Assembly: GCA_965223005.1 (NCBI GenBank)
Contig: CBDCVK010000009.1
Coordinates: 32,001 to 96,000 of the forward strand
DNA from: Terriglobia bacterium
Lineage (GTDB): Bacteria > Acidobacteriota > Terriglobia > JAJPHL01 > JAPKYU01
Reading direction: 5' to 3'
Length of the DNA stretch: 64,000 bases
Shown here: in pieces, positions 46,192 to 64,000 of the stretch
Position numbering within the stretch: the stretch's first letter is position 1
How the letters are laid out: every line of letters begins with the position of its first letter
The notes under the pieces: model-generated
Seen by the model: only the letters and a program-made list of their open reading frames with translations
Databases searched by the model: none
Told to the model about the DNA's origin: nothing
Made by a program: the position numbers and the translations under genes

Positions 46192-46269
<78 letters not shown>

Positions 46270-46595
46270 CAAAATAAGGAAGTTAAAAAGACAAGTCCTT
46301 GGGATAAAGATTACAAGGTAACAAGTAGGTAACGAAACCGCGGGTTGCAATGACATGTAATGGGAAGCCCAGGGCAGCACCGTTTTCAGTCTAGTCGGCC
46401 AAAGGAGCACGCAATTCGTGCGAGTTGGGACCCCACAGGCGGGAATTAAATGCTAGCCAGTTAGGCAGGATCTATCCGTACCCACCCATCTAAGAAACGC
46501 TACACCATCCAGGCAGAACATAGGTAAACACTAGTCCCTTTGTGGGGACTATTGGCTTTTTGCGCCAGGTCTACTTCCCCGAAGGGAATCCAGGC

Positions 46596-46627
46596 ACTTG
46601 TCCGGTTAGCGCGTTATACGTCCAACT
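46596..46627 (+). repeat. 32-bp palindromic site, copy A (type 1)
   Basis: ACTTGTCCGGTTA GCGCGT TATACGTCCAACT. Confidence 0.9.
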
Positions 46628-46707
46628 GGCGCACCGCTGAGCGGGTGGGGGTATGATCATTTCCGCCGCGCCTCGTTTTTGTGAACTCGTACAAGGTTCC
46701 CATCTAG

Positions 46708-46793
46708 GAGGGCATTTACAAGCTGGCGCAGGCTGCGAGCGAAGCGGTCATAGCGGTAAACGACCACCGCGTCCACGCGGCGCTTCCGGCATC
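46708..46793 (-). pseudogene. Serine recombinase (resolvase) fragment
   Basis: CRKRRVDAVVVYRYDRFARSLRQLVNAL matches the resolvase DxVVVxxxDRxxR motif; homology stops at a CTAG. Confidence 0.75.
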
Positions 46794-46802
46794 CGGGGCC
46801 CG

Positions 46803-46954
46803 CTAAGGGAGTGGTGTGTTCAGAGACCAGAAAAAGGCGAATCGGGGACCCGAGCAAGGCCCCAAAGGCCCATGAACGCCCCTGGAAACGACTCGCACAG
46901 CTCCTCCAGAACGAAGCACTTTTATTTTTGCTGCGTTTTTCAGCACCCTGCTAG
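46803..46954 (+). mobile_element. Orphan right end of an IS5-family element
   Basis: Ends TTTTTCAGCACCCTG+CTAG, identical to the end at 57615-57633 that follows the IS5 transposase remnant. Confidence 0.7.
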
Positions 46955-48387
46955 CGCACGAGGCGGGATTTTGGAAATTGGGCGTGCCAGCCGAACCAAA
47001 AGGCTCGGTGTGAAGGGAGGCGCTGTCGTCGTTCGCCCGAAGGGTGGATGAGCGCTTCCTCCCTCACTTCCCAAGCCTGGCCTTCTTCGTCGATGAGCAG
47101 CGAGTCCCGATTCCAATAAGCGAAGCTCACCCCGGTGGCATCGTGGACTCGATTGGCCCCCGACCGATCGGTCAAGATTACGAGAGGCTGGCTTCCAGCC
47201 CTTTCCTGATACAGTGGGTGCTTCTTCAGAAAAGAAGTGTCATAGGCGACCGCATTTCCCTTCAGCAGTAACGCAACGACTTCCTGTTTGTTCTTGAGCC
47301 GCTTGTCCTGAAAAGGAACCGGAAACATAAGGGCCTGGGTGGCAAAGTAATCTCGATAAGCGACGCCTTCCCTGTAATCCCTGTCATGACCGGTTTCGAG
47401 CGACAGCACCTTGGTCCGCGGATGGCGCTGCTTCCACTCCTTCCAGGTGGTTGTGACAATGGGAAGTCGCTTCAACTGCAACCCGGAGCCCGTCAGCTTT
47501 CCGGTGACCGGAACTCCTTCCAGAGCCGACCACAGGGAACGGGTCTGACGGTCGTACATCAGTTTGTTGGACCGATAGATAAAGCCGCTGGTCCCGAAAT
47601 CGAACTTCCGGCTTCCAATCCTTTGATCGTAAAGGACGGCGGACCCGCACAGGGTACAGTAGGCACAGGTCACATCGACGTCGCCAACAGTGTCGTTAAA
47701 TAATTCATGCGCGGCCAGGATTCGCTTGGGATAAGCGCGGGCATCTCCATCGATAAAGACGCCGAAGACCACGTTCTTCTTGCCCAGATAGGTTGCCTCC
47801 CGGGCTTCGATGAACTTGGGATGCTCCAGAGGAGGAATCCCGTCCACTTTCACCCCTCCCCACACAATTTCATCCAGACGGATCGCGTGCTGCACCCCGG
47901 GGTAAAAAAACCAGCGAAATCGCTGGTCAATCTGCATATAGACCGCCTCTTTAAATCCCGGGTAGTCCGGGTGCATCTGGAATTCTTGCTGCCACATCCA
48001 CTTTAGCCAGGTGTAGAAAGTTCGCTCCAACCTTTGCCCGGTTACCCGTTCGAGCATGCCCCACAGCCTCTTTGTGCGCAAATCGTTCGGAGGTAGAAAT
48101 TGAATGACCTCCAGCACCATGGGCGCGAGACCTATTTCCCAACTGGATTCAATGATGGCCAGAGGCTCCGGCCGCGACGCCTTTCGCGGGTCCACGAAAT
48201 CAGAAAGGGCCTGGACAGGATCATTCCCGGGAGAAGGGAGCCGTTGGCGAACCACCGCGGGAGCCTGCTCGATCGCACTCCCCTCTAACGCTTCAAAAGA
48301 TCTGCCCCCAGCAATAACGCCGGATGCAAAAGCTACCAAACCTACCAGGATAAAAAACAACGTTGCGCTTCTAGAACGGATGAGCAT
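46951..48387 (-). CDS. DUF3179 family secreted protein
   Basis: Signal peptide; WGGVKVDGIPPL, ARAYP, YCTLCGS, FGTSGFIYRSNKLMYDRQTRSLW and FWFGW. Confidence 0.85.
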   Translation of the reverse strand: MLIRSRSATLFFILVGLVAFASGVIAGGRSFEALEGSAIEQAPAVVRQRLPSPGNDPVQALSDFVDPRKASRPEPLAIIESSWEIGLAPMVLEVIQFLPPNDLRTKRLWGMLERVTGQRLERTFYTWLKWMWQQEFQMHPDYPGFKEAVYMQIDQRFRWFFYPGVQHAIRLDEIVWGGVKVDGIPPLEHPKFIEAREATYLGKKNVVFGVFIDGDARAYPKRILAAHELFNDTVGDVDVTCAYCTLCGSAVLYDQRIGSRKFDFGTSGFIYRSNKLMYDRQTRSLWSALEGVPVTGKLTGSGLQLKRLPIVTTTWKEWKQRHPRTKVLSLETGHDRDYREGVAYRDYFATQALMFPVPFQDKRLKNKQEVVALLLKGNAVAYDTSFLKKHPLYQERAGSQPLVILTDRSGANRVHDATGVSFAYWNRDSLLIDEEGQAWEVREEALIHPSGERRQRLPSHRAFWFGWHAQFPKSRLVR

Positions 48388-48671
48388 AACTGTATTGCCT
48401 CCTATCCCAAAAGTGGGTAGTAGCCCAGGCTCTGGCCAGTCATGGGAAGGCTCCCCTCTTGCCAGCGATCCTACGCCCCGCCCGCGGGCAAATCAACGTA
48501 GCGACTCGGCCAGTTGCAAGCGGCACGAGATACACTGCCTTGTCTCCAGTAATGCCGGATAGATTGCCCCTAACCCTCTAGTTCTTTCCGGTCCGGATGC
48601 CAACTCCCGAATGCTCGCCGACTCGGAAAGTACCCCAGCGCCTTGCGGCTCCTCGTCTAACGTCAGCGGTC

Positions 48672-48703
48672 ACTTGGACGTATAGTCGGCTATCCGGACA
48701 AGT
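48672..48703 (-). repeat. 32-bp palindromic site, copy B (type 2, inverted)
   Basis: Minus strand reads ACTTGTCCGGATA GCCGAC TATACGTCCAAGT. Confidence 0.9.
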
Positions 48704-48860
48704 GACAAAGGGAATCCTCGGCAGCAGTGTTCCGGACGGGAGAAGGAAATGGAGTTTGGGTTCGATTAGGGTTCGATAAGGGTTTCCAAGCCTTCCTGAA
48801 GCTTCCTCAACATTGCTATGCGTACCGCAAAATGAATGACTTAGCCAAAAGGGGTTAAAG

Positions 48861-48904
48861 TCATAACCCAAAGGTCGTCGGTTCAAATCCGACCCCCGCA
48901 ACCA
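48861..48904 (+). other. 3' half of initiator tRNA-Met (att-site duplication, not a full tRNA)
   Basis: TCATAACCCAAAGGTCGTCGGTTCAAATCCGACCCCCGCAACCA; no D-arm or 5' acceptor strand upstream. Confidence 0.85.
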
Positions 48905-48911
48905 AGAAATC

Positions 48912-48942
48912 AAGGGGTTAGGGCCGGATGCTCTAACCCCTT
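48912..48942. terminator. Hairpin after the tRNA fragment
   Basis: AAGGGGTTAG-N11-CTAACCCCTT inverted repeat; overlaps the IHF-consensus AATCAAGGGGTTA. Confidence 0.55.
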
Positions 48943-49003
48943 AGTTGTCTCATCTAACAGCCATCTAACAATTCACTGGGCACCAGTTGCATAAGATTTC
49001 TTC

Positions 49004-50504
49004 TCACCACGTGTAGTGCACCGTGTAGTCAATGATGGCCTCACCGCCGGCAGCAATCGTTGGTCGAAACTCTACCGTGCGAGCATCCTTTTTTCGTGTG
49101 GCTCATCGAGCCGGCCGTGATTTCCCACTGGATCCACCGATACATATGCTCGACGATGCGGACTTCGACTTCTTCGTCCTTGTGGTTGCGCACCTTGATC
49201 TGGAAAGATTCATCCACCCAGTGATTCCTCGTGTCCACTTTGAAGTTGGTCTGGCGACGTTCCCCCACAAGGTCGAAAGCGTTCCCCGTGTAGAGTTGCA
49301 CGGTCTCGTCCGTCGGCGTATGGTCGATCTTGTCCTCACCGATGAACTCATTGCGTCTGTCGACGTCTTGCCGATAGACCTTGACCTTGCCTCGCGGAAG
49401 GGGCATCCCGAGATGCGATTTCTCCGAGTTCTCGAACTCCAGCATTACCCACACCTTGGAGTTCGACACAGTACCGTATTCGGGTCGCGTACGGATGTTG
49501 TGGAAACTCCAACCGCGGTACCGGGGGTCCATCTTGAAGCCGTCGTACACGTAGATCCGTTGGGCCGCAACATTGGTGGCGCGCAGGAACTCCACCTGCT
49601 TGATTTCTCGGTCCAGGACGGTGGTCGGCCGCTCCAACGTGTATAGGTGGTATTCCTCGAATGTGCGCTCGGTTACGGCTGGATCGGCGGCAGCGTAGTC
49701 TCTTGCCTGCCCACGCGAAAAGCTGACTGGTCCGCCCTCCGGCGCGACCCGTGCCACATCTCCTGCCATGAGCTTGACCTTGGCCTTCTCGAAATCCTTG
49801 CCGCTCATGTTCTCTAGAGTGATCCATCCAATGATGTCGAAGGTGTCTCCTTTTTCCGGCGCGACCGCGTTGTAGTTCGCCTCCCAACGCATGCCCCCGG
49901 TGAGGTAGGAGATCTCGACTTCGTGATCGCCAGCTTGGGCAGACCAAAGCTTCCACAACAGCGTCGGTTTCAAAAACGCTTTCGGGTCCAAGGCATCAAA
50001 AACCGGTTTGCCGGGCAGGCCAAACTGGATCCTGCCGTCCACTTGCACAATCGGCTGACCACCCCCCTGTGGATTCGCGTAGAGCATTTGACTGGAAGCA
50101 TACTGGCGGCCATAGCGTCGAAATGCAGACGTGTGGGGGACATATCCGCTGCGCAAGATCTTGCCCCTAACGGTCTTTTTCTCACCGGTCTGCGGCAGAG
50201 TGATGTCGAAGTCCAGCACTTTGCCCTCCGACTTGCGCAGCAACAGACCTTGACTCAGCGGGTCGCTCTCGTAGTTCTGCTCCAGAATCCGGATTGAATC
50301 CGGTTGCCGAAGATGGCGGAGCACGACCGACTCAGGCTCCAGGTGCGCCGTGATATCGCTCACGCGGACCTCGTTCTCGCCCCTCACCAACCCGAAGGTA
50401 CGGTTTTCCTTTACCGCAGCGAAATTCTGGTTGTAGACAGTAAGTTGTGTTTGCGCATGTACCGTACATGGTGTAAGCACTGCAACGAGAATCAGAAATC
50501 TCAT
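49004..50504 (-). CDS. DUF4139-family secreted protein with an apparent +1 frameshift in an A6 run near the C-terminus
   Basis: GGAGG RBS; LTVYNQNFAAVKE, SYLTGGMRWEANY and LGMPLPRGKVKVY; removing one A at 49089-49094 restores ...KKDARTVEF...DYTVHYTW*. Confidence 0.85.
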
Positions 50505-50610
50505 ATGGCCTCCTGGGTCATGGTCTCCCCTGTCGGTTACATACTGCAAGAACTATACCGGGAAGTCCTCGTCGTAACCGTCTGCTGTTGACACATTCTC
50601 TCCGAGAACT

Positions 50611-52049
50611 GAGGGTGTCCTGAACTCAGTTGAAAGTTCGTAGCGGCGGTTCGGAGCCATCATACTACGCCACCTCCCGTCGAGTGGCCGACTTTGATCC
50701 TTCGAGGATCGCTTTCAACATCCACAGGTCCTGGTACCCCATCAGGCGGCGGAAGTTTTTCTCCGTGGCCAGGAAGCTGGAGGCGACCCAGCGCTGGACC
50801 ATGGCCGCATCCCGCCAGCGGCACACCCGGCGAGTTCGCAACCTCACTCCCGCCTGCGGACTCTCGATGAGATTGGTGGTGGCCAGACAGCGATGCAGCG
50901 AAGCCGGAAGCCCCAGCCGGTTGATGGTGAAACATTCCTCCAGACCCTCCCGCAAGCTGGCCGCCGCGGCCGGACAATCTCGCTCCAACCATTGGGCCAA
51001 CTTCTCCAGCTTGGCCCTGCCGGTCTTCGGATCCAACCGCCAGGCGGCCCGCATCGCCGCCCGCACCTGGTCCCGCTCTGGCTCCGGCAACCGGTCCAGG
51101 ACGTTGCGCAACTTGTGGGCGCGGCAGCGCTGCACCGGCTGCTCGGCCCCGAACACGGCGCGGATCGCCGCCCGCAAGGCCTTCGAGCCGTCGATCACAA
51201 ACAGCCGTTTCTGGGCCGGCTGCACCCCTCGCCGCACTAAACCTTCCAGCAAGTCCTGGACGGCCGCGGCGTTCTCCGTAGCCCCCTCCTGAATCCCCAG
51301 CACGTGCTTGTGCCCTTCCGCATCCACGCCCACAGCCGCAATCACGTGATGGTCGCCAAACACCATCCCGTCGATGTAGAGGATCAGCAACTCTACTTCC
51401 TCGAAGCGGCGGTTCAACAGACGTTCTAACTCGGCTGCGGCAGCCTCCATCGTTTCCCGGCTGACCGTGGAGCGCGACACACCCACGGTGTCCGCCATCT
51501 CCGGCAACACCCGCTGGTACTGCCGGGTCGAGACGCCCCGCAGCAAGATATCCAACATCCGGGCCCCCAGACCCTCGCCCTCCTGCATGGCTTCGTAGGC
51601 CGGGAGGGGAACTTCTTTCCCCGCTCCCCGGCCTGGCCGCCGGAGCCGTGGCCTGTGCACGGCCAGCTTTCTCTCCTTCAGGCGCACCCGTCCCCGCTGG
51701 CGCCCATACCAGCCTACCCCACGGCGCCGCCGGCCCTGACGGCGTGGACCGGCCACCTGCGCGGCCGACAACTCCAGCACCGCTTCAATCGCCGCCCTAC
51801 CCACCACGTCGATCAGCTCGTCGACGGCTAACCGCGATTGTTCGATCAACTCCACCCAGGGCAGCAGAAACTGCCCGTGGCGAGCCAGGTAGGCAGCCAG
51901 TTTGCGGGAGCTTCGGCTATCGCTCCGGCCTAGGATGTGGTAGCTTCTCTGCACGGCGGTTCCCCTTTCCAGAAAGTTTCCCAACCCGATTCTACGGAAC
52001 CAGGTCAGCGAACCGCCGCTCGACTTTCAACTAAAGGTGAGACACTCTC
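50611..52049 (-). mobile_element. Complete IS256-family element
   Basis: Imperfect ~42-bp IRs GAGGGTGTCCTGAACTCAGTTGAAAGTTCGTAGCGGCGGTTCG / GAGAGTGTCTCACCTTTAGTTGAAAGTCGAGCGGCGGTTCG; 8-bp TSD CGAGAACT (50603-50610 and 52050-52057). Confidence 0.92.
50665..51954 (-). CDS. IS256-family transposase
   Basis: GVSTRQY, YIDGM, GHKHVLG, IDGSKAL, QRCRAHKLRN and TTNLIES. Confidence 0.92.
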   Translation of the reverse strand: MQRSYHILGRSDSRSSRKLAAYLARHGQFLLPWVELIEQSRLAVDELIDVVGRAAIEAVLELSAAQVAGPRRQGRRRRGVGWYGRQRGRVRLKERKLAVHRPRLRRPGRGAGKEVPLPAYEAMQEGEGLGARMLDILLRGVSTRQYQRVLPEMADTVGVSRSTVSRETMEAAAAELERLLNRRFEEVELLILYIDGMVFGDHHVIAAVGVDAEGHKHVLGIQEGATENAAAVQDLLEGLVRRGVQPAQKRLFVIDGSKALRAAIRAVFGAEQPVQRCRAHKLRNVLDRLPEPERDQVRAAMRAAWRLDPKTGRAKLEKLAQWLERDCPAAAASLREGLEECFTINRLGLPASLHRCLATTNLIESPQAGVRLRTRRVCRWRDAAMVQRWVASSFLATEKNFRRLMGYQDLWMLKAILEGSKSATRREVA

Positions 52050-52139
52050 CGAGAACTTTCAAGGTAAGGTAAGCCGCCTGCCGCTGGCCGGTACGGGCCC
52101 GGATTTCGCGCCCCAAACGAGAGGAGCGGGGCGCGAGAC

Positions 52140-52961
52140 TCAGCGAGGCTCGGGGCAGAAACCCGGCTCGAAGCCGCGGGCACTCTGCCGTCGGGCGAGC
52201 GGGTCCGGGTAGGGCGCGGACGAGGGTGGCAACAGGCCCAGGCGCACCAGTTGTGTCCGATACTCGTAGCGGATGTTGACAGTGGCGGCTGGCTTCCCTT
52301 CCAGTTCCATGCGCACCCGGTAGACCCGGTGGCCGTAGCGGCGGCCTATCCCCGTGGCGGCGTAATCCTCCTCACGGACGTTGCCTGACGGGCTCTCGGC
52401 CTTGCTCGATCGCTCGGCTGAGTCGCGCGATGCACCAGCTTCTGGAGCCGGGCTGGGCCCATCCCTCCGGCCTTGTTCCTTAGGCACCACCGGGCGCGGC
52501 GCCTTCGGACGGCGCTTCTCGCGGAAGTACACGGCGCTGATGATTCCCAGGTTCTGCCTCTTTCCCAGCCAGGCTCCATACGACTGCTCTTCGCTGGTGA
52601 AGAAGAACCGGCGGGCGTTTTTCATTCCCGTCTGCCAGCCGCTGATGGTAATCGTCTCGTACGGGCCCAACACCCACTTCTGGGCCGAGCGTGGGTCGGT
52701 GTGCCGCGCGTCAATCGTGTTCAATCCGTCCACCGAAAGCGCCACGGCCACCCGCACGCCCAGCGGGTTCCGCAGGCGGATCGAATACTTCTTGTCCTTG
52801 ATGGCTTCCACGTAGCGCAGGCCGTGGCCGAAGTAGACGGGCACATGACGGCCATCCACCAGCACGTCCACCTGGAAACCAGCAGGGTAGGAAGTACGCG
52901 CGCAGGCGGGCACTGTGGCCAGCGCGAGAAAAACAGCCAGTCCGAAGAGCTTGCGGTTCAT
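52140..52961 (-). CDS. Conserved secreted hypothetical protein
   Basis: Signal peptide; YSIRLRN...VALSVDGLNTID...ISGWQ...RRFFFT...NLGIISAVYFRE; strong RBS. Confidence 0.75.
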   Translation of the reverse strand: MNRKLFGLAVFLALATVPACARTSYPAGFQVDVLVDGRHVPVYFGHGLRYVEAIKDKKYSIRLRNPLGVRVAVALSVDGLNTIDARHTDPRSAQKWVLGPYETITISGWQTGMKNARRFFFTSEEQSYGAWLGKRQNLGIISAVYFREKRRPKAPRPVVPKEQGRRDGPSPAPEAGASRDSAERSSKAESPSGNVREEDYAATGIGRRYGHRVYRVRMELEGKPAATVNIRYEYRTQLVRLGLLPPSSAPYPDPLARRQSARGFEPGFCPEPR

Positions 52962-53175
52962 TGTCCTCTCCTCCTCGTCTAGAAGAACGGAGGAGGGACA
53001 GAAAACTTGCAGGGGGAGTGGGACACAAATTCTTGCCAGCTGGAGGACCTGTCCCACAAATCCAACTATTTGCTGGCGCATGCCCTGGACTCTCAGCCTG
53101 CGCAGGGCTTTCAGTATCCCACTTAATCCGAGGCGAACGTCTTGTACTCAGAGATTTGGACCAATACGAAGCAGG

Positions 53176-53395
53176 CTATTGCACGGCAATGGTGACGGTG
53201 TTGCTCGGGACGCCGTTCTGAAGCAGGACTAGGGGAACCTCGGAGCCCGACGCCACATCGGCCGGTATTTCCACGTTCACCTGGTAGAGTCCTACAAAAC
53301 CTGGGGCTAGACCGGCAAAGTGCACCGTCGCTGGCTGGCCTCCCAACTGCGCCTCCACCGCCACCACCACCCTCGCCAGCGGCTCAGCTCCAGCA
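53176..53395 (-). pseudogene. Orphan C-terminal fragment of a Solibacter-type (TIGR03437-like) domain protein
   Basis: GGQPATVHFAGLAPGFVGLYQVNVEIP...SNTVTIAVQ, homologous to the end of the ORF at 63216; no upstream domain. Confidence 0.7.
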
Positions 53396-53478
53396 GAATA
53401 TTGGATCCCCGTCCGCCAGATCCACGGTTGCGAGAATTCCTGGTTCGTGCCCACTCGGATATGCAGGCCGGTGCGAGG

Positions 53479-55083
53479 CTAGTGCTCGATTGCTTTCTCG
53501 GCACCGAGGCCCGTGTTCGCGCGGACGCTGAGCTCGATGTATTTCTCCTCAGCCGACGGCTCTTTCGAGAGAACCGATCCCATATACGCCGCCAAGAAGC
53601 CCAGCGGAATGCTCACGATGCCGGGATTCTTCAGCGGGTACAACGTCGGCGCCTGAATCATCCGGCGCGCGGCTTCGGCGACCTCCGGCCCGTCGACCCC
53701 CATGAAGCTCGGGCTCACCAGGATCAGCCCGATCGAGGAGAACAACCCGGCCGCCAAACCCCATACCGCCCCGCGGGTTGTGAACTTGCTCCAATAAACC
53801 GAGAACAGGATGACCGGCAAGTTCGCCGACGCCGCCACCGCGAACGCCAGTCCCACCAGAAACGCCACGTTCGCCCCCGGGCCCAACCCGATGGCAATTG
53901 CGATGGACACCGCGCCGACGACGAGCGCCGTCCAGCGCGCCACACGCACCTCTTCGCCCGGCGAGCGCTCTTTGCCGTGATGGATCACGTTCGTGTAGAA
54001 GTCGTGGGCGAACGAAGTCGAGGCGCTGATGGTCAACCCGGCCACTACGGCCAGAATCGTCGCGAACGCCACGGCCGAGATGAAAGCGAAGAAGACGTCG
54101 CCGGCCAGCGCCTGCGCCAGCAACGGGGCACTCATGTTGATGCCGCCGTTTTCCGAGATCGCATTGCGTCCGACGATCGTCGCCGCGCCGAAGCCCAGGA
54201 ACGTCGTCATGATGTAGAAGGCGCCGATCAGCAGCATCGCCCAGAAAACGCTCACTCGGGCGGTCTTGGCGTCCGGTACGGTGTAAAAGCGAATGAGGAT
54301 ATGAGGCAGCCCGGCAGTGCCGAAGATCAGCGCCATTCCCAGCGAAATCAGATCGAGCGCACCGTAGGGCGGCTTGTAGTAGAGCCCAGGTGTCAGGAAG
54401 TTTTCTGTGACGGTTTGTCCGCCGGCCTGGTAGGTGACGCGGCTGGTGGCCTCGAAGAACGCGCCGAGGTCGAAGCCGAAGTGGCCGAGCACGAGAACAC
54501 TCATCAGGAAAGTACCGCTCATCAGCAGGACAGCTTTGACAATTTGCACCCAGGTCGTCGCCAGCATCCCGCCGAAGACGACGTAGACGATCATGAGGAT
54601 GCCGACGCCGGTCACAGCGCCCGTAAAGCTGATCCCGGAATCGGCTAGCAGAAGGCTCACCAGCGCACCCGCGCCCACCATCTGGGCGATCATGTAGAAC
54701 GTGGAAACGGTCAGCGTGCTCAGCGATGCCCAGGCCCTTACCGGACGCGCTCGGAGCCGGTAGGCAAGTACGTCGGCCATGGTGTATTTCCCGGCGTTCC
54801 GTAGCGGCTCGGCGACGACGAACAGCACGGTCAGGTAGGCGACCAAAAAGCCGACCGAATACATGAAGCCGTCGTAGCCGTAGAAGGCGATCAGCCCGGC
54901 AATCCCCAAAAACGATGCCGCGCTCATGTAGTCGCCCGAGATGGCGAGCCCGTTCTGCCAGCCTGTGATGCGCCTGCCGGCGGCGAAGTAGGCGCTCTCG
55001 CCCGAGGATCTGCCCGCGGCCCAATAGGTGATTCCGAGGGTGGCGGCGATGAACGTCAGAAACATCAGCAGCGATAGTGACAT
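53479..55083 (-). CDS. actP: Cation/acetate symporter (SSS family)
   Basis: NGLAISGDYMSAASFLG, GGMLATTWVQIVKA, GTAGLPHILIRFYTVP and FISAVAFATILAVVAGL. Confidence 0.92.
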   Translation of the reverse strand: MSLSLLMFLTFIAATLGITYWAAGRSSGESAYFAAGRRITGWQNGLAISGDYMSAASFLGIAGLIAFYGYDGFMYSVGFLVAYLTVLFVVAEPLRNAGKYTMADVLAYRLRARPVRAWASLSTLTVSTFYMIAQMVGAGALVSLLLADSGISFTGAVTGVGILMIVYVVFGGMLATTWVQIVKAVLLMSGTFLMSVLVLGHFGFDLGAFFEATSRVTYQAGGQTVTENFLTPGLYYKPPYGALDLISLGMALIFGTAGLPHILIRFYTVPDAKTARVSVFWAMLLIGAFYIMTTFLGFGAATIVGRNAISENGGINMSAPLLAQALAGDVFFAFISAVAFATILAVVAGLTISASTSFAHDFYTNVIHHGKERSPGEEVRVARWTALVVGAVSIAIAIGLGPGANVAFLVGLAFAVAASANLPVILFSVYWSKFTTRGAVWGLAAGLFSSIGLILVSPSFMGVDGPEVAEAARRMIQAPTLYPLKNPGIVSIPLGFLAAYMGSVLSKEPSAEEKYIELSVRANTGLGAEKAIEH

Positions 55084-55084
55084 T

Positions 55085-55414
55085 TCATTCATCCCCTTCG
55101 CCGTCGGCGGCCTCGTTGGCGATGGCCTTGTCAGCCAGGATCTTCTCGGACATTCGGTCAAACCGCCTGGCGATGCGCATGTAGAGATACGCCAGCGCCC
55201 AGGCCATCAAGAACTGCGAAAACGCAAACAGGTAGGCCCAGTTGACGACGCCCCACACCTGGCGCTCCATCAGCTCCGGCCAGTAGCCGACCAGCACCGG
55301 CAGCGCGAAGTAGAAAATGACGAAGAACGCCGTCGCGGATACGATGAAACGCGTTTTCTGGGCGATCATCCGCCTATAGTCAGGCGAGTTGTGGATACGG
55401 TCCCATTGGTTCAT
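55085..55414 (-). CDS. DUF485 (YjcH-like) membrane protein
   Basis: Two TM helices, YMRIARRFD; canonical position upstream of actP. Confidence 0.85.
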   Translation of the reverse strand: MNQWDRIHNSPDYRRMIAQKTRFIVSATAFFVIFYFALPVLVGYWPELMERQVWGVVNWAYLFAFSQFLMAWALAYLYMRIARRFDRMSEKILADKAIANEAADGEGDE

Positions 55415-56179
55415 GGCGAAGCGCTAAGGATAACTTTCTTCCATTTCGACCGCGAGGAAACTGGAGAGAAGGCCCTCCGCGGAAAGATAGAAGCGCTGCT
55501 ACAGAGGACTAATCTGCAGCAGCTACAGCAGGGATATAGGATACTGAAGGCGCTTCTCGGCCCTAAACCAGTTCACTTATCTTGATCGCGGATGATATAC
55601 CATCCAGTCGGTGCCTGTTGCCGCTTTTGTTGGCAGCCCTTGCGTTAGTCGGAATCCTCCACAAAGTCGCCTGGGCGACCTCCTCGTTTGGACCGACGAC
55701 CAAAATAGCGTGGCTTGCAGATGAAAGCGCATAAGAATAATTCAAGGGTATCCTAGCTGAGTTTGCAAGATGAAGGAGTCGTTCACGAATCAGCGCCTGA
55801 CACGGCCGCGAGAAACCCTCAGCTACCTGCTAGTGCCCCAGCAATCGCAAGGGTGCCCCAGGAGCTTGCATCCGTTGCGGCAACGATAGCCCCGTCATCG
55901 AACTCGATCTCCACGCTCAGCTGCACCTCGATAGCTCCGTCGTCCGCGGCACCCTTTCGAAGTCAATTTCAGATCCTATGGGCGGAAACATACTCCCTTG
56001 CCGTCGATCTTATCCTTCAGATCGATGTGCGCCATTTCCGGACAGAACCGGCAGGTCTTCGTAGGGCAAGGTATCGCCGAAATAGATGCAGTTGGCGGTA
56101 TCGTAGTTATCTTAACGTTTGGGTCATTGACCGCAGCGAACCGTGGCCAAAGGAGTTTGCCGTTGCAGTGTGCTTGCCA

Positions 56180-57633
56180 ACTTCCAGGATCGTGACACCG
56201 TTTTTTCGGGCATGTCCGCCACCTCCGGTTGGCCAGAAACGGGGGGTCCTCTTCCAGGCCGGCTCCGCCGGTGTACTCAACAACCCCGGGAGCTTTGGAC
56301 GCAAGGCTGATGAGTTTCTTGGTCGCCGACGGTCATCATCATGTTGCAGAGAATCCCTTTCAACCGGGTATCGAAGCTTGGCTGGAGGGGGCCGTCGCAT
56401 GTCGAGGCACGTCTTTGACCCTCTCTCCGAGGTGTTGGCTGCGAGGCGGGCGAGAATCCAGTAATTCAGGCAGTTGCCTGTCCCGGAGGCAGCACTTCAC
56501 GGTGGACTTGCGGACGCTGTCTGGAGGTCTAATCTCGTGGGCGAGCTTCCCCCAGAAGATGCTTTCAGAGTGAATCGGACGCCCGCCCGGAGGGGCCATT
56601 TTGGCTGCCGGAGTCGATGCGGAACAGTTCGCCTGCCCAATCCCACGGTCCGGGACTTCCACCAAACCCTCTCTCCTGGGTCGAGAAGCTGGAGCCAACG
56701 AATCGTTCGCACCAGCTCTGACGCTCAGACCCGGAGCGCTCGGCTGCCGCCCGGAAGCTGGCAAAGGCGAAGGAGGCCAAGCTGAGCTACGCCGGGCACG
56801 TGCTGATGGAGTTCGACCGCAACGGGCTGGTGGTGAACCGCCTGTGCCGGCTGATCCAGGCCACCGGCACCGCCGAGCGGGAAGCGGCCGTGGAGATTGG
56901 TGGAACCCCACGCGACAGTTCCGGGCCCGCCGTCAGCAGCGTCCAACGGCTGCCTGGTGCCGACCAGAACTACGACTGGCGCGAAGCGATGGTGCAGCTG
57001 TCGTTGCCGGGATGCGGAAGGCCACGCCGCACGTGGCGCAGAACCAGGAACGGCGGCGCAGTGCTACTTCTTGACAGCCGGACTCACACGAAGTTCTTCC
57101 CAATCCCGGGTTACCAGATCAGCCAGAGTCACCCTCGCGCTGGCAAGAACGGGTGGAAGACTCGAGTTGTCGCTCTGATGGATGAAGACCGGTCGGGTGT
57201 GCTGTCCGGAACCCGGCTGCGGCATCCGGGGCCTGTTGATCGCTGCGCAAGGTCGTCTTGCGTCAGGATCTGTCTCACCTGTAACGGCTGCTGCGCCCGT
57301 TCAATCCTGAACCGATCCGGAATTCGCAACTTGGTGAGCCGCTCGGGGCCGTATCCTGCCGCGGGTAGATGGTGCCGGCTGAAGTCAGTTGAGGGGCCGT
57401 TCTTCCCCTGAGGAGTCGAGTGTGTCCAAAGGACGAACCCCAAACGGGCTGGGAGTTTTTCAGAGGCGGAAGCTGATTCGCGACAAGGCCCGCAAACCGG
57501 GGCCAATAGCCGAGGTGTCACTACGAAGGCAATGTTGATGCTGGAACCGGCTCAACGTTGGAGAAAAGGTTGCCGGCCGACAGGATAAACGCTTGACTGA
57601 CCTTTTTTGGCCGCTTTTTCAGCACCCTGCTAG
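56180..57633 (+). mobile_element. Heavily degraded IS5-family transposase and right end
   Basis: Scattered motifs across frames: HFTVD, WASF, KEAKLSYAGHVLME..RNGLVV, QATGTAEREAA, GADQNYD; ends TTTTTCAGCACCCTG+CTAG; left boundary uncertain. Confidence 0.7.
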
Positions 57634-57774
57634 ACCGCATAGGACCTGGGTCCTCCGTCTTTGGTCCCGATAACTGCCTTTCACCATCCAGGCAGAAGAT
57701 AGGTAAACGCTAACCCGTTTGTAGCGACTATCGGCCTTGTTCGCGAGGTCTACTTCCCCGAAGGGAATCCAGGC

Positions 57775-57806
57775 ACTTGTCCGGTTAGCGCGTTATACGT
57801 CAAAGT
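57775..57806 (+). repeat. 32-bp palindromic site, copy C (type 1)
   Basis: ACTTGTCCGGTTA GCGCGT TATACGTCAAAGT. Confidence 0.9.
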
Positions 57807-58257
57807 GGCCTGCGTGCAGCATAGGTAAAAGCTAACCGCGGCTGAACTAGATTAGCAAACGTAGTGGTGTTGACCTCATTATCAATCACGCCTCCGGCCA
57901 CGATAAAAACCGCCCCCCGGCGGTAGAATTCAGCAAGTGGAGGTTGAAAGACAACACTGAACATCTTGATTCACATGTGTCATGGGGACTGTAGGGGATG
58001 AACTCAAATCGGAAATTCCGCCTCAAGGCTACCGGAAGCCCGTTGAGCCCCATTATCACGCAGTTCACCTATATGCAGTATCTTTACGGTGACCGAAGAG
58101 TCATACTTGATATGTTCTTATGATGGCGGTGGGTTCGACCAATTAAGATCGGCTCTATTTCTTTTGTAAAAACCTCCCTTAAGAATTGCGGTTTCAAGGG
58201 ATTTCCCTGTGGAGAAACTTTGCATTGACTAACGTGTTTAGCGCCTCAGGAGGCAAT

Positions 58258-58479
58258 GTGGCAATGATGGCCGCTGGGATTGCGTCTGCGGTCGACGATG
58301 TCCGCGGTTACGGGCCAGAAGTCGTCGAACGGCTTAGGGGGGCTTTGGAACAAAACTGCCCGGCCCGGCCAGATCCCCGCCATCCCTACCTGTTCGTCCT
58401 GGAGTGGGCGGGCGAGAGTTTCTATATCGCTCATCCTCCCACCGGGAAGATCCTGCTGCTGGCGCGCTGGCCGAGCTGA
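58258..58479 (+). CDS. Small hypothetical protein
   Basis: AGGAGG RBS before GTG; GC-rich coding pattern; PDPRHPYLF...GKILLLARW. Confidence 0.6.
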   Translation: MAMMAAGIASAVDDVRGYGPEVVERLRGALEQNCPARPDPRHPYLFVLEWAGESFYIAHPPTGKILLLARWPS

Positions 58480-58665
58480 GGCGGACGGGTAGCGTTCAGG
58501 CAGCCTGTCAGCTATCACCCTGCCGAGACACAAACAGCCTGCTGGTTAATTCCAGGTTCAAATCTTCTGGGGTTTTTGGATGAGGATGATTGGGCCGCCC
58601 TGGGACCAAGGAGGAAGCCGTCGGACGTCAGAATCACTTGGGCGAAGCGGCCGAAGCCGAGCCAA

Positions 58666-58875
58666 ATGCCATCCCGCGTCTTCAAGTGCGAAAGCTGTGG
58701 CATCTGCACGTCTCTCCTCATTCATGATGACCAATCGCCAGAAGGTATGAAGGAAAACCCTGTCGAGAAATACTGCCCTACGTGCCGGAGGTTGAGGAAC
58801 TGGAGCTTTGTCTTCCCGGAACGGCGTAGCGGGCCACGTCGAAGGAGCGACCTGGATCGGCGCCGGGCAGAGTAG
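58666..58875 (+). CDS. Small zinc-ribbon protein with Arg-rich tail
   Basis: CESC...CPTC and C-terminal [16 protein letters not shown]; start uncertain. Confidence 0.55.
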
Positions 58876-58937
58876 ACAACAGTCTGCCAGTCGGCCCACC
58901 TCTGGCCGGCGGCGTTCTGGAGAGGAGTTGGCAGGTT

Positions 58938-60641
<1,704 letters not shown>

Positions 60642-60765
60642 CCCTGTCCAGTCTGGTAGTCTCCTTCACCCGCTCTTGCTTGTGCCAGGCGCGCCCCTGA
60701 GCCGGTCAACGCGCATCGGCTCCCGTCCCTAGCCAAGCCGTGGAAGCGGGCCTCGACCAAGTTCC

Positions 60766-60797
60766 ACATGGACGTATAGTCGGCTATCCGGACAAGT
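60766..60797 (-). repeat. 32-bp palindromic site, copy D (type 2, inverted)
   Basis: Minus strand reads ACTTGTCCGGATA GCCGAC TATACGTCCATGT. Confidence 0.9.
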
Positions 60798-60827
60798 GAC
60801 CCTCTACGCCCGCCAGGGTAGTGGGTC

Positions 60828-60895
60828 AGTTTCCGATAAGGCGTTATACATCCAAAGTGGCACACCGCTGAGCGGGCGGAGGTAACATCATTTCC
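60828..60895 (+). repeat. Degenerate site copy E with conserved 3' flank
   Basis: AGTTTCCGATAAGGCGTTATACATCCAAAGT followed by GGCACACCGCTGAGCGGG...ATCATTTCCG, as after copy A. Confidence 0.7.
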
Positions 60896-61013
60896 GAGTG
60901 CGCCGTGACACGATCGGAATCATCGAAACTGGCGATGCGGCCGGTATGCCTGTTCAGGCTATCACAATGGCGGTGAGGCAACTCGTCCGGTGCAGCGTAT
61001 TGTTATACGGCCG

Positions 61014-61505
61014 TCACAAACCTAGCTCGGCGCGGGAGGCGGTTAGTTTACCGGCAGTACTTACCCCGTGAATGCCTATTAACCAAACGGCGAAGCTGAC
61101 AATTTCTATGCGAGCCGTCTCCGGAGACGTCACACTTAGGCCGGAGCTCCACCATCCAATCGTCTTCGCAATTTGACCGACTACACAATCGTCTTCCCAT
61201 ATGTCGTGATGTAAGATCAGGCCCTTTCGACGAGGTTTGAGCAGCCAAGAACGAGTATCGAAACTCACCGTCAACGTTAATCGAGGACCGGTGCCTTGTC
61301 TTTGAGAACTAGCGATGGAGATTCCGCTCTCCTCCAAAATCCATTTCCCCCGACCATTAGCACGAACAAAATAGCGCTTTTTCTCGATCAAGAGGCTGGC
61401 GTGTCTCCAATCGTCGAACTGCATGAAGCAAACAACTGAGTCCTTGTCCAATAGCTCATAATCTTTCGAGAATAATCCACCTTTTCTTCTAAGCAATAAG
61501 CTCAT
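61014..61505 (-). CDS. Low-GC hypothetical protein (possible tubby/LURP-one-like beta barrel)
   Basis: 163-aa ORF of beta-strand-like segments with a hydrophobic C-terminal helix; AT-richer than the host. Confidence 0.55.
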   Translation of the reverse strand: MSLLLRRKGGLFSKDYELLDKDSVVCFMQFDDWRHASLLIEKKRYFVRANGRGKWILEESGISIASSQRQGTGPRLTLTVSFDTRSWLLKPRRKGLILHHDIWEDDCVVGQIAKTIGWWSSGLSVTSPETARIEIVSFAVWLIGIHGVSTAGKLTASRAELGL

Positions 61506-62022
61506 TGTGCAGGCAACAATCTCGACGGCGGGGCCCTTCACTTATTAATAAGGCTTCCTGAGTGTCACTGCTACCCAGCCAATGCTCTGAAGCCAGGGTT
61601 AGGACAAAAACATCGCTCCAAGTAGAATGGCTCCAAACCCTCTTCCGTTGCCACCTGTGCCCCTCAGGGGAACTGAGAACGCGGATGGTAAGTAGAGAAA
61701 TCAATCCCCCCTGCCGACAACCTACGCTCCCCCCAGGAGCTAGTCAAGAACGGACCAGCGTGGCCTTTATTAGGGGTCGGGGAGGGGTGATCCTGGCGGG
61801 CACCACTTTGGGACTCCCGCTTTCTCTAGGGTTGGCTATAGTGCCGATTCTCAGTCTAGGAACTACCAGTGCAGTCCAGCTGTGTCAGGGGTGTAGTGGG
61901 CCTTTCTGCGCTGTGGGGCATTCCTAGGAAACTAGCAGAGAAACCCGGATTGGAAATTGGGAACCTTAGGGGGAGCTGAACCGTGACCGCAGCCTCCGCC
62001 TTCGCTGCGGTAAGATTACCTC

Positions 62023-62703
62023 ATGGAAAGTTTTCCGTCCCGCCGTGTCCTAGAGACTCTCCTGTCGCGAGAACCGCGAGAGTACAGCCTGGAAGTCGGG
62101 GCATTCTCCGTCTTGACGATTCTGGGGATTTCCCTGCTAGCCTGGCAGAACGGAGCGGCTCTCCTGCCGACTCTTGCCGCCACTTCGGAAGGGGCTCTAG
62201 AGGAACATGAATACTGGAGACTGCTGACGGCCATAGCCGTGCACACGGACATGGCGCACTTTTTCTCCAACGCCATCTTCCTCGCCTTCTTCAGCTATCT
62301 GCTCTTTGGATACTTCGGCTTCTGGGTCTTCCCGGTTCTGGGTCTGGCTCTGGCCGGGTTGACTAACTACCTTTCCCTGCTGACCTATCCTCCCGAGGTC
62401 AGCTTGGTGGGAGCGTCAGGATTGGTCTATTGGATGGTGGGTTTCTGGCTGAGCATGAACCTGCTCGTGGATCGCAGAGTGGGTCTCGGGAAGCGGGTCG
62501 TGCGGGCGGTAGGCATCATACTGGTGGTCCTGTGGCCGTCGACGCTTCAGGAAAACGTCAGCTACCGGACCCACGCCATCGGTTTCGGACTAGGTGCGGT
62601 CTCGGCATTCGTCTATTTCCGGCGGAATCGCGAGTCCATCCGGGCGGCGGAGGTCGTGGAAGTGGAAGACCCGTTCGACTATCCCGATACCACAGCCTCC
62701 TAG
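62023..62703 (+). CDS. Rhomboid-family intramembrane serine protease
   Basis: EYWRLLTAIAVH, HFFSN, VGASG catalytic Ser, SYRTHAIGF catalytic His. Confidence 0.88.
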   Translation: MESFPSRRVLETLLSREPREYSLEVGAFSVLTILGISLLAWQNGAALLPTLAATSEGALEEHEYWRLLTAIAVHTDMAHFFSNAIFLAFFSYLLFGYFGFWVFPVLGLALAGLTNYLSLLTYPPEVSLVGASGLVYWMVGFWLSMNLLVDRRVGLGKRVVRAVGIILVVLWPSTLQENVSYRTHAIGFGLGAVSAFVYFRRNRESIRAAEVVEVEDPFDYPDTTAS

Positions 62704-63026
62704 CAAGGGGCAGGTGGTGATCCTAGGCGACCCCGCTCCGGGACTCGCGCTTCTTCTCTACTTAAAGGTTTAATTCAAGCGGTACGAATACGTTAGGAGT
62801 GGTGGTTACAAGGCCAGCCGTAGTCGAATGGTTGGCGATGCAACCACCTCATATCGCCCCTGAACGCAAACCTGCCTGCGCCGCAAAGTCCAGACGCAGG
62901 TATAAGTTGCGGGGAGCCGCAATGAAATAACCCGCAGCCATGCGGGATCATGGGTAAACGCTAGCCCGTTTGTGGGGACCATCGGCCTCGTGCGCCAGGA
63001 CCTAACTTCCCCGAAGGAATCCAGGC

Positions 63027-63058
63027 ACTTGTCCGGTTAGCGCGTTATACGTCCAAGT
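63027..63058 (+). repeat. 32-bp palindromic site, copy F (type 1)
   Basis: ACTTGTCCGGTTA GCGCGT TATACGTCCAAGT. Confidence 0.9.
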
Positions 63059-63215
63059 GGCGCACTGCTGTGGGCGCACCGCCGAAAATGCGCCGCAGAT
63101 CTGTGGGAGTTCCCTCTTGAAAGGACTACTAAACGCTAACCGACTTGTGGAGACTAATCTGCCGAATGTGAGGCAACTCCTGCCGTATCAAAGAATTACA
63201 TCGCCGGCGACGGCC

Positions 63216-64000
63216 TCAGGGTGCTTGGGCCGGGATGGTGACGGACTTATCCGGGTTGGCAACAATCCCGTTCTGCGTCAGGACCACCGGGACGGCGCCC
63301 GTCGCAACGCCGGCGGGCACCACTGCGTTCACTTGGTAGAGACCCACAAAGCCCGGCGCCAGCCCCTGGTAGGCTATCCCGGCGTCGATCCCTCCAATGG
63401 TCACCGTCACCGGCAGTTGCACGGTGCTGAACGAGGGCGCGGGGGCTCCCGTTTCCACCTGCTCCTGCACCGCGCCCAGACCGGTGGCGAAAATCTGAAT
63501 GGTGTCTCCGGCGCGGACCGGGTTCTGCGCCGTCACCAGTTGGAACGAGGCGTCCAGAATGGCGGCGTTTTCGCCGGCGATGAAGATGCCTGGCTGCACG
63601 GGCGCAATCAAATAGTTCTGCGGCGCGGTCAGTAGGCCACCCACACTGGTCGTGACCGGAACGCTATCGCCCGGGCTCACCTCGAACGGCACCTGCGCGT
63701 TGATCTGCCCCGGGCCGACGAAATACAGTGGCGCATCCTGGCTGCCGATGCGCACGCTCACCCCGGCCAGCTCCCGCTCCAGCGGGAGCTGGGTCGCGAA
63801 ACTGTTCTCGTTCGCGAAGCGCGCTCCAAACAAGGAGATGATGCCGCCGGGAGACAGCGGCCGCCGCTTGGTGAAGCCGGCCCCTTCCACCACCCCATCG
63901 GCGAACAACGACGGCAAACTCACATCGCCCGGCGCAGCCGCCGTCGAAACCGTAAAGGAGCGCTGCACCTGGGCAAAGTCAGGATGCAGAGCGTCAAGGG
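63216..64000 (-). CDS. Solibacter-type C-terminal domain (TIGR03437-like) surface protein, 5'-truncated by window edge
   Basis: LSPGGIISLFG, PLYFVGPGQINAQVPFE, NPVRAGDTIQIFATGLG and GLAPGFVGLYQVN. Confidence 0.85.
   Translation of the reverse strand, partial: LDALHPDFAQVQRSFTVSTAAAPGDVSLPSLFADGVVEGAGFTKRRPLSPGGIISLFGARFANENSFATQLPLERELAGVSVRIGSQDAPLYFVGPGQINAQVPFEVSPGDSVPVTTSVGGLLTAPQNYLIAPVQPGIFIAGENAAILDASFQLVTAQNPVRAGDTIQIFATGLGAVQEQVETGAPAPSFSTVQLPVTVTIGGIDAGIAYQGLAPGFVGLYQVNAVVPAGVATGAVPVVLTQNGIVANPDKSVTIPAQAP

Follow-up and report, generated by a model that had tools for sequence, protein, structure and literature searches.

Exchange of gene modules between bounding recombination sites is so far known mainly from the resistance plasmids of Acinetobacter, and arrays of gene cassettes are otherwise known mainly from integrons. 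The C and D dif modules of Acinetobacter alternate between inversely oriented sites, and their recombination is thought to be limited to sites with matching spacers; a single dif module is not excisable and is swapped via a cointegrate, whereas a pair of modules can be excised (PMC13141974). Here we describe an array of 32-bp sites in a stretch of 64,000 nucleotides (the window) from a Terriglobia bacterium of the phylum Acidobacteriota (assembly GCA_965223005.1, referred to as G000). The array is part of contig C9 of this assembly, which comprises 3.24 Mb in 10 contigs (C1-C10); congeners are labelled in the same way (G001 and G003), and loci fetched for comparison are given L numbers. We believe, with some reservation, that this 32-bp element serves a simple Xer/Cre-type tyrosine recombinase as its core crossover site and that it bounds exchangeable modules.

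The array shares several features with the Acinetobacter modules. In both cases asymmetric sites have two arms around a 6-bp spacer, and in both cases inverted sites bound two alternating kinds of stretch, which here have either their right arms or their left arms facing inward. The preliminary description of the window had drawn this parallel, and the alternating orientation, the two module classes and the spacer classes bear it out. The two systems also differ. The Acinetobacter sites are 11-6-11 in geometry and resemble the host dif site, whereas the sites described here are 13-6-13 and are unlike host dif. The Acinetobacter modules lie on small Rep_3/OrfX plasmids, whereas the site-bearing contigs in Acidobacteriota are 0.1-1.7 Mb long and carry core genes as well. 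Only two spacer classes are present here, each tied to one orientation, and neighbouring modules are parted by a doublet of sites with a palindromic linker of 29-38 nt, not by one shared site. Finally, the conserved flanking blocks are long, and the enzyme may be a dedicated Xer-like recombinase. Among the titles and abstracts retrieved, no description of such a system in Acidobacteriota was found. The initial claim that the system is undescribed holds only for the literature searched, and its logic is known from the Acinetobacter dif modules.

Integrons resemble the array in that diverse accessory cargo is arranged with imperfect palindromes of ~100 nt in between. Single strands of attC form two stems with an unpaired central spacer and a terminal structure, and the doublets described here fold likewise, which is a resemblance only. 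The intI gene adjoins attI and reads away from it, and the recombinase gene YR-t (described below), where present, is placed likewise with respect to its site. However, no integron integrase was found among the recombinases tested (best TIGR02249 score 142 bits, cut-off 265). By reading, the sites are unrelated in sequence to attC core sites; furthermore, module genes point both ways, modules hold several genes and solo sites are common. Another parallel is recombinase-mediated cassette exchange, in which a heterospecific pair of lox or FRT sites with shared arms and different spacers permits exchange without excision. That system is a laboratory design, whereas its counterpart here would be natural. 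The Cre site has a 13-8-13 geometry, similar to that of the sites described here. Last, the Neisseria dRS3/NIME and the enterobacterial REP/BIME elements are alternating short palindromic repeats that are group-specific and lie in repeat mosaics at the borders of variable islands. Compared with these families, the 32-bp sites number only tens of copies, which is far fewer, they are spaced by kilobases around cargo, and their class is strictly linked to orientation.

Sites, spacer classes and flanking blocks

The window was scanned with the pattern ACTTGTCCGGWTA-N6-TATACGTCCAAGT, allowing up to 3 mismatches, and 100 dinucleotide-preserving shuffles served as the control. Five matches were found, at 46596(+), 48672(-), 57775(+), 60766(-) and 63027(+) (sites A, B, C, D and F, respectively), each with 0-1 mismatch. 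The 100 shuffled windows contained no match and neither did the rest of the 64 kb, in agreement with the early remark that the site had not been noticed in the core-gene part. All three plus-strand copies (A, C and F) carry the spacer GCGCGT (class 1) and both minus-strand copies (B and D) carry GCCGAC (class 2), just as first reported. Six copies had been counted originally; five of these match the pattern, but the sixth, site E, is of a different type. Read directly, E is CAGTTTCCGATAA-GGCGT-TATACATCCAAAGT and thus has another left arm, a 5-nt spacer and a right arm with an additional A. As the E-type left arm CAGTTTCCGATAA was found again in 17 of 83 sites of the genus, we regard E as a third site type and not as a decayed copy.

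The sites are embedded in conserved DNA. A block of ~90-130 bp, which we call the P block, lies directly before each of A, C and F, and it precedes most solo GCGCGT-class sites of G000 too. Sites D and E are 29 nt apart with their left arms facing each other; together with their linker they form a palindromic doublet of ~100 nt that is capable of forming a hairpin (-25 kcal/mol, z -5.9). Single sites of class 1 fold no better than shuffles (z -0.6), and those of class 2 modestly better (z -3.3). Matches to promoter-like and terminator-like sequences at the sites were at chance level, and the sole match in an Rfam scan of the window was the tRNA.

The relationship between class and orientation was examined in a table of 83 sites. 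Of these, G000 contributed 42, and the other 41 came from two congeners, in which 18 loci had been picked for holding sites. Among 56 adjacent pairs no more than 20 kb apart, 41 were inverted. Pairs of different class were inverted in 36 of 37 cases, and pairs of the same class were co-oriented in 14 of 19 (Fisher test of class against orientation 2.7e-8, a value that is overstated because the genomes are kin). Within an array, class 1 sites all point in one direction and class 2 sites all point in the opposite direction, and the stretches between them alternate between right arms inward and left arms inward. Every right-arm-inward stretch contained cargo (19 were tabulated, up to 12 kb long). 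The close doublets of G000 were all arranged left arm to left arm (7/7, none with right arms inward), with fixed palindromic linkers of 29-38 nt.

The flanks of the sites follow a similar rule. The inner flanks of class 1 sites belong only to clusters 0, 3 and 4, and those of class 2 sites only to clusters 1, 2 and 5 (68/68 classified sites). By comparison of outer with inner flank types, all four combinations are present within each class; the flanks have reassorted at the sites. Several half-sites retain the overlap with either one arm or the other (L104 3631, L140 3520, L029 3850, and C2:249678 and C2:250853 of G000). This would be expected if crossovers take place at the borders of the overlap.

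Module relocation and distribution of the sites

Modules are found at different places in different genomes. The module that carries an rpoD gene (window 57775-60797) is also present at G001:C4, where it is inverted and lies between two doublets. It matches the window module at 98.4% and 93.5% identity, and beyond the outer edges of the two sites there is no similarity. A further copy of the rpoD interior, at G001:C1, follows a P block and a class 1 site, and the class 2 end is missing there; an IS3-family copy (IS, insertion sequence) lies ~300 bp past the end of the similarity. The window rpoD is an extra copy, because G000 retains the syntenic core rpoD on C10 (~704.9-706.9 kb). It encodes a complete primary-type sigma factor of 567 aa, and the protein is 94% identical to the syntenic core RpoD of a congener, with scattered substitutions. 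G001 has three rpoD copies, one in the core and two beside sites.

A sodium:solute symporter gene between sites B and C is 99.2% and 99.6% identical to its counterparts in two congeners, and the core DNA by the tRNA is 94% and 86% identical. Thus, the cargo is more alike between species than is the core DNA. In G003, the symporter gene adjoins a site of the other class. The sites had been proposed to be module ends, and the breaks in homology between genomes at the sites support this proposal. On the comparative evidence, the interpretation of the sites as putative ends of modules mobilized in trans has been largely borne out.

At up to 4 mismatches, G000 contains 42 sites, or ~43 with E. They are clustered on C9 (78-113 kb), C2 (136-145 and 218-272 kb) and C10 (109-114 and 1558-1577 kb), and there are a few solitary copies. 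The suggestion that the array was being built at tRNA-Pro found no clear support: the island in the window starts at the 3' end of a tRNA-Pro gene, but similar arrays are present on C2 and C10. At up to 2 mismatches, 26 sites were found in G000, 21, 5 and 36 in three congeners, and 1-2 in each of 3 of the 37 other relatives from the class; a reversed-pattern control gave no matches in all 41 genomes. An even sample of the phylum, scanned at up to 3 mismatches, had 1-4 copies in 8 of 400 other genomes (2 control hits). This patchy distribution suits a mobile system, not a housekeeping site.

Larger collections were scanned as well. With one genome taken per species, an exact scan found 13 loci, 12 of them in records titled as Acidobacteriota and one in a contig of 1.8 kb with the title Dehalococcoidia. 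In metagenomes 44 loci were found, and in viral contigs none. The free spacer positions of 55 sites from outside the genus fell into the two known classes: 44 were NNCGAC-like and 11 were NNGCGT-like. Pairs and doublets of the same architecture exist in distant genomes (for example L029, L031, L040 and L041).

A candidate recombinase and alternative explanations

The geometry of the sites corresponds to that of simple Xer/Cre-type sites, which have two inverted arms of 11-13 bp and an overlap of 6-8 bp, and we infer that a tyrosine recombinase is the agent. As no recombinase gene adjoins the copies in the window, any such enzyme would act in trans, as had been supposed. Besides XerD (355 bits, above the cut-off) and a XerC-like protein (316 bits), G000 has eight further genes or gene fragments for tyrosine recombinases. 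Integrase genes at three places (near C10:109421, near C10:1105451, in L130) were considered and set aside, being of ordinary phage type or truncated. When the open reading frames (ORFs) near sites at distant loci were clustered, the only recurrent families were Ser/Thr kinases, PP2C phosphatases, IS110 (3 loci) and a recombinase family that we call YR-t (3 loci).

YR-t proteins have ~320 residues, and the copy in the site-bearing genome G148 is 62.5% identical to one on a metagenome contig. The family is Xer-like: among NCBIfam models it scores best with XerC (112-119 bits, below the cut-off), and among solved structures XerA and XerD are nearest. Three YR-t proteins were looked up by exact match, and no entry was found. 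In L029, L127 and L140, the YR-t gene has a site 60-640 bp upstream, the left arm of which is nearest the gene; the site of L140 is a local variant that is present twice in the locus. In L104, a frameshifted YR-t gene lies between a left half-site and a full site. The preliminary description had suggested a search for a tyrosine recombinase gene next to other copies. This was successful in part, for YR-t adjoins sites at four distant loci, but among the tyrosine recombinase hits of G000 (12) and of two congeners (36 and 43) no family lies regularly beside sites. G000 itself retains a YR-t remnant of 62 N-terminal residues (C2:250935-251120; L138 4935-5120), with a half-site (spacer and right arm) 70 bp upstream in the same relative orientation. 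The remnant is fused in frame to a reading frame resembling a TIG-type C-terminus, a rearrangement scar within the site cluster.

The presence of YR-t is also correlated with that of the sites. In the phylum sample, YR-t was found (E <=1e-50) in 4 of the 8 genomes with sites and in 7 of the 392 genomes without them (Fisher 2.1e-5); when genus g32 was left out, the numbers were 2/5 and 3/382 (p 1.3e-3). YR-t is the best candidate for the enzyme.

Based on these results, we propose a model for how modules might be exchanged. The two unlike 13-bp arms of a crossover site would flank a 6-bp overlap, and the GCGCGT-like overlaps of class 1 and the GCCGAC-like overlaps of class 2 should not recombine with each other. 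Because the classes alternate in opposite orientation, each stretch lies between inverted, unlike sites, and because its ends are such a pair, a single stretch could be neither excised nor inverted by its own ends. Exchange of a module would proceed through two like-with-like crossovers, of which one forms a cointegrate at sites of one class and the other resolves it at sites of the other class. A stretch together with its neighbour could be excised between two direct sites of the same class. The recombinase would act in trans; in other Acidobacteriota the YR-t gene adjoins such a site, with the left arm nearest the gene. As only the 62-residue remnant is left in G000, the arrays of this genome may be products of past or imported activity, or they may be worked by another recombinase.

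Several observations weigh against this model. The counts of class and orientation come from related genomes and from loci that were chosen because they bear sites. In the patterns used for the collection scans the arms were fixed, so that the conservation of the arms in those scans proves nothing. No intact YR-t gene is present in G000 or in the three congeners, which are the genomes richest in sites, and among 40 nearer relatives YR-t and sites overlap in 1 genome only. Of 12 YR-t loci retrieved by protein search, L140 alone has clear adjoining sites, L134 has a weak one, and none were recognizable in the remaining 10 with the patterns used. In addition, no recombination event was seen in Logan contigs of public sequencing runs, and no joint at a site had a stated long side. 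The Logan contigs do stop near sites, and repeats have the same effect on assemblies. In one contig of run X24, a 36-nt linker of the usual type connects the end of B with the start of F; as any doublet could be the source of this contig, we do not count it as evidence. The small word shares in other sequencing runs were uninformative on habitat. Finally, each site has 20-130 bp of conserved flank, and at one locus the break relative to core DNA lies ~27 nt outside the core site. Thus, homologous recombination at these longer repeats could have made part of the mosaic.

This last point is the basis of an alternative that we consider unlikely, namely that the sites belong to an intergenic mosaic repeat family, similar to REP/BIME or Neisseria dRS3/NIME, whose mosaic structure arose by ordinary homologous recombination during gene transfer. 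Several independent conserved blocks do surround the core (the P block, the linkers, four types of inner flank and a ~35-nt box that is also found away from sites), a site with its flanks amounts to 60-130 bp of similarity, and the regions are rich in IS copies and in indels bounded by direct repeats. However, the outer and inner flanks reassort exactly across the 32-bp core, which is the sole sequence that the partners share. The mosaic explanation also gives no reason why spacer class and orientation are so strictly coupled, or why both spacer classes have survived in distant lineages. RAYT, the Y1 transposase of such repeats, is not present in G000 (96% complete), which has no match to PF01797; a control search was positive in 6 of 14 known genomes.

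There is a similarly small chance that the modules are as we describe them, but are worked by host XerC and XerD, as proposed for the Acinetobacter pdif sites, with no dedicated enzyme. XerC and XerD are the only recombinases expected in every site-bearing genome, G000 encodes both XerD and a XerC-like protein, and three site-rich congeners are without YR-t. Furthermore, the left arm of the third type, GTTTCCGATAA, when compared by eye with the XerC-side arms of dif, agrees at 9 of 11 positions in two related families and at 7 of 11 in the genus. This likeness would suit a Xer-like enzyme or XerC itself. The dif site of the genus argues in the other direction. Each of the three congeners has one canonical dif, TCGTCTGATAA-GAGATA-TTATGTCAACT, and with a looser pattern single canonical dif sites were found in 27 of 40 relatives, the congeners among them. 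The right arm of the 32-bp sites, TATACGTCCAAGT, fits the XerD arm in no register without indels, as the preliminary description had held for the canonical XerD arm, and the common left arm is a poor match to the genus's own XerC-side arm. A universal enzyme would also leave the patchy distribution of the sites in need of an extra explanation.

The same comparison disposes of the suggestion that the 32-bp sites are themselves the host dif at the terminus, since the dif of the congeners is canonical and unlike the sites. The dif sites of three Acidobacteria have been predicted with Firmicutes-type profiles (PMC3025954), which agrees with the canonical dif found here. The canonical dif was not found in the 10 contigs of G000; the assembly simply lacks the stretch that bears it. 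A dif look-alike at C10:1630196 was dropped, for it is present only in G000 and G001 among 41 genomes. The G000 assembly is ~1.1 Mb smaller than those of two near-complete congeners despite its completeness estimate of 96%, and its accessory DNA may be under-assembled.

GC skew was of no help in locating the terminus. In G000 it is weak and noisy, and on the closed chromosome of G350, another site-bearing genome, it ranges from -0.36 to +0.31 in 20 sampled windows and swings with gene strand, which makes it uninformative. In 20-kb windows of G350 contig C1 (L043-L062), the skew tracks the strand of long ORFs and not position, and the bias of composition with gene strand is unusually strong. 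The antipode of dnaA is 46 kb away from one of the G350 sites, a single weak coincidence, and G148 has no site near the antipode.

A small serine recombinase of the resolvase/invertase type could also use the sites, but we regard this as quite improbable. At three loci of G003 (L014, L063 and L011), a gene of this kind lies 0.3-0.6 kb from a site; two of these genes are intact (193-208 aa) and one is a pseudogene. By reading, the central dinucleotide is palindromic in both spacer classes. The DNA between gene and site is not homologous between the G003 loci, and the two may be close because both reside in accessory DNA. In addition, G000 is without a small serine recombinase and has only two large ones and a fragment, and the site-bearing genomes G148 and G350 show only broken fragments.

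It is still less probable that the sites serve as terminal inverted repeats for a non-autonomous transposon (either a mobile insertion cassette or a composite bounded by miniature inverted-repeat transposable elements) whose DDE transposase lies elsewhere. The two sites of a module are indeed inverted ends that are identical at 26 of 32 positions, and IS110-family genes are near sites in 3 distant loci. However, no recognizable IS ends and no target-site duplications were seen at the module ends inspected (the inspection was not exhaustive), the modules have no recurrent transposase family in them, every end by itself has two arms and a spacer and is nearly palindromic, and what separates neighbouring modules is not target DNA but a fixed palindromic linker. 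Last, although kinase, DUF3179 and TIG genes at several loci have a site 60-300 bp upstream, we find it scarcely credible that the site is a transcription-factor operator for neighbouring signalling or surface genes, as the sites lie in accessory regions and are not scattered in front of core genes, genes in modules have mixed orientation, sites are also found at the 3' ends of genes, promoter-like matches are at chance level, and the breaks in homology at the site and the link between spacer class and orientation would be left unexplained.

If the 32-bp element is the crossover site of a tyrosine recombinase, as we favour, a broader proposal can be made, which we offer only tentatively. Acidobacteriota may have a natural cassette exchange of their own, with YR-t as a dedicated recombinase, a 32-bp site with two heterospecific overlap classes, and chromosomal modules that are swapped between loci and species and are never singly excisable. 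The recombinase gene and its adjacent site would form a platform, and left-arm doublets would be empty slots. The cargo of these modules includes sigma factors, kinases, phosphatases, transporters and surface proteins. Were this proposal correct, module shuffling would be more widespread than thought and would have a chromosomal counterpart in an abundant, poorly studied soil phylum. It would account for the movement of an additional primary-type sigma factor and of signalling gene sets among these genomes, and the 32-bp signature would provide a handle on accessory modules in Acidobacteriota genomes and metagenomes. A new recombinase with a heterospecific pair of sites might also serve genome engineering.

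Layout of the array and its cargo

The variable island that contains the array starts at the 3' end of a tRNA-Pro(CGG) gene (46192-46268, plus strand), and behind position 46268 the contigs of 4/4 sequencing runs diverge. In two congeners (L001 and L002) a tyrosine integrase gene directly follows tRNA-Pro, the classical layout of an island; in G000 this place is taken by a P block and site A. This P block (46503-46595, plus strand) contains a ~35-nt box, here with the sequence TAAACGCTAGyCCGTTTGTGGGGAC, and comprises repeat families D2 and D5. Site A (46596-46627, plus strand, class 1, GCGCGT, 1 mismatch) and site B (48672-48703, minus strand, class 2, GCCGAC, 0 mismatches) enclose the first module (46628-48671), which has its right arms inward and carries a DUF3179 gene (46951-48387, minus strand; PF11376, E 1.6e-77). 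The three congeners contain no long match to this module. Logan contigs cover 46636-48627, ending near the sites.

The stretch between B and C (48704-57681), with left arms inward, contains a weak DUF4139/DUF4140-like gene (below Pfam cut-offs), an IS256-family copy (50611-52049), the sodium:solute symporter gene (53479-55161, minus strand) and an indel (55639-57629). Two congeners contain many copies with 100% identity to the IS256-family element, and site-rich regions are crowded with copies of IS3, IS30, IS5 and IS4 type, shared at at least 99% identity. The indel of 1991 bp is missing in the contigs of 4/4 runs (joint 55638->57630) and in the congener G001. Its ends are similar ~25-nt repeats, TTGCCGCTTTTGTTGGCAGCC and TTGGCCGCTTTTTCAGCACCCTG, and the ORFs inside it are of no known family.

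A second P block (57682-57774, plus strand) precedes site C (57775-57806, plus strand, class 1, 1 mismatch). The module between C and D (57807-60765) carries the extra full-length sigma-70 (rpoD) paralogue (58938-60641, plus strand), so that the gene content of both the A/B and the C/D module was as initially given. Site D (60766-60797, minus strand, class 2, 1 mismatch) is followed by the palindromic 29-nt linker (60798-60826) and by site E (60827-60858, plus strand), the third type with left arm CAGTTTCCGATAA and a 5-nt spacer. Between E and the next P block (60859-62939) are two ORFs of no known family and a rhomboid gene (62023-62703, plus strand). The rhomboid block (61785-62715) is missing in the contigs of 3/4 runs (joint 61784->62716); it is bounded by direct repeats of ~45 bp that begin GGTGATCCT, a second, unrelated type of cassette-like border.

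The third P block (62940-63026, plus strand) precedes site F (63027-63058, plus strand, class 1, 0 mismatches). The start of the next module (63059-64000) contains the 3' end of a gene for a large TIG-domain surface protein on the minus strand, and this module ends past the window, at a class 2 site (G000:C9:101472, minus strand). The rhomboid gene had been placed between E and F and the surface-protein gene after F, both correctly, but as the latter gene is on the minus strand, F lies at its 3' end and does not precede its start. Across modules, the cargo includes a DUF3179 protein, a full-length sigma-70, response regulators, PP2C phosphatase, an MFS transporter, aldo-keto reductase, a DUF1553/DUF1501 pair, a cyclase, and beta-propeller and TIG surface proteins. 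Modules often contain several genes, which point in both directions.

The ~35-nt box (TAAACGCTAGyCCGTTwGTGGGGACyTATC) is present in the window at 46520-46556, 57699-57735, 62950-62986 and 63128-63164, and at no fewer than 30 places genome-wide. It adjoins most sites on either side, but is also found distant from full sites, often beside decayed copies. As RNAalifold found no consensus structure in 14 copies, the box may be bound by a protein, and we suggest that it is a putative accessory protein-binding site.

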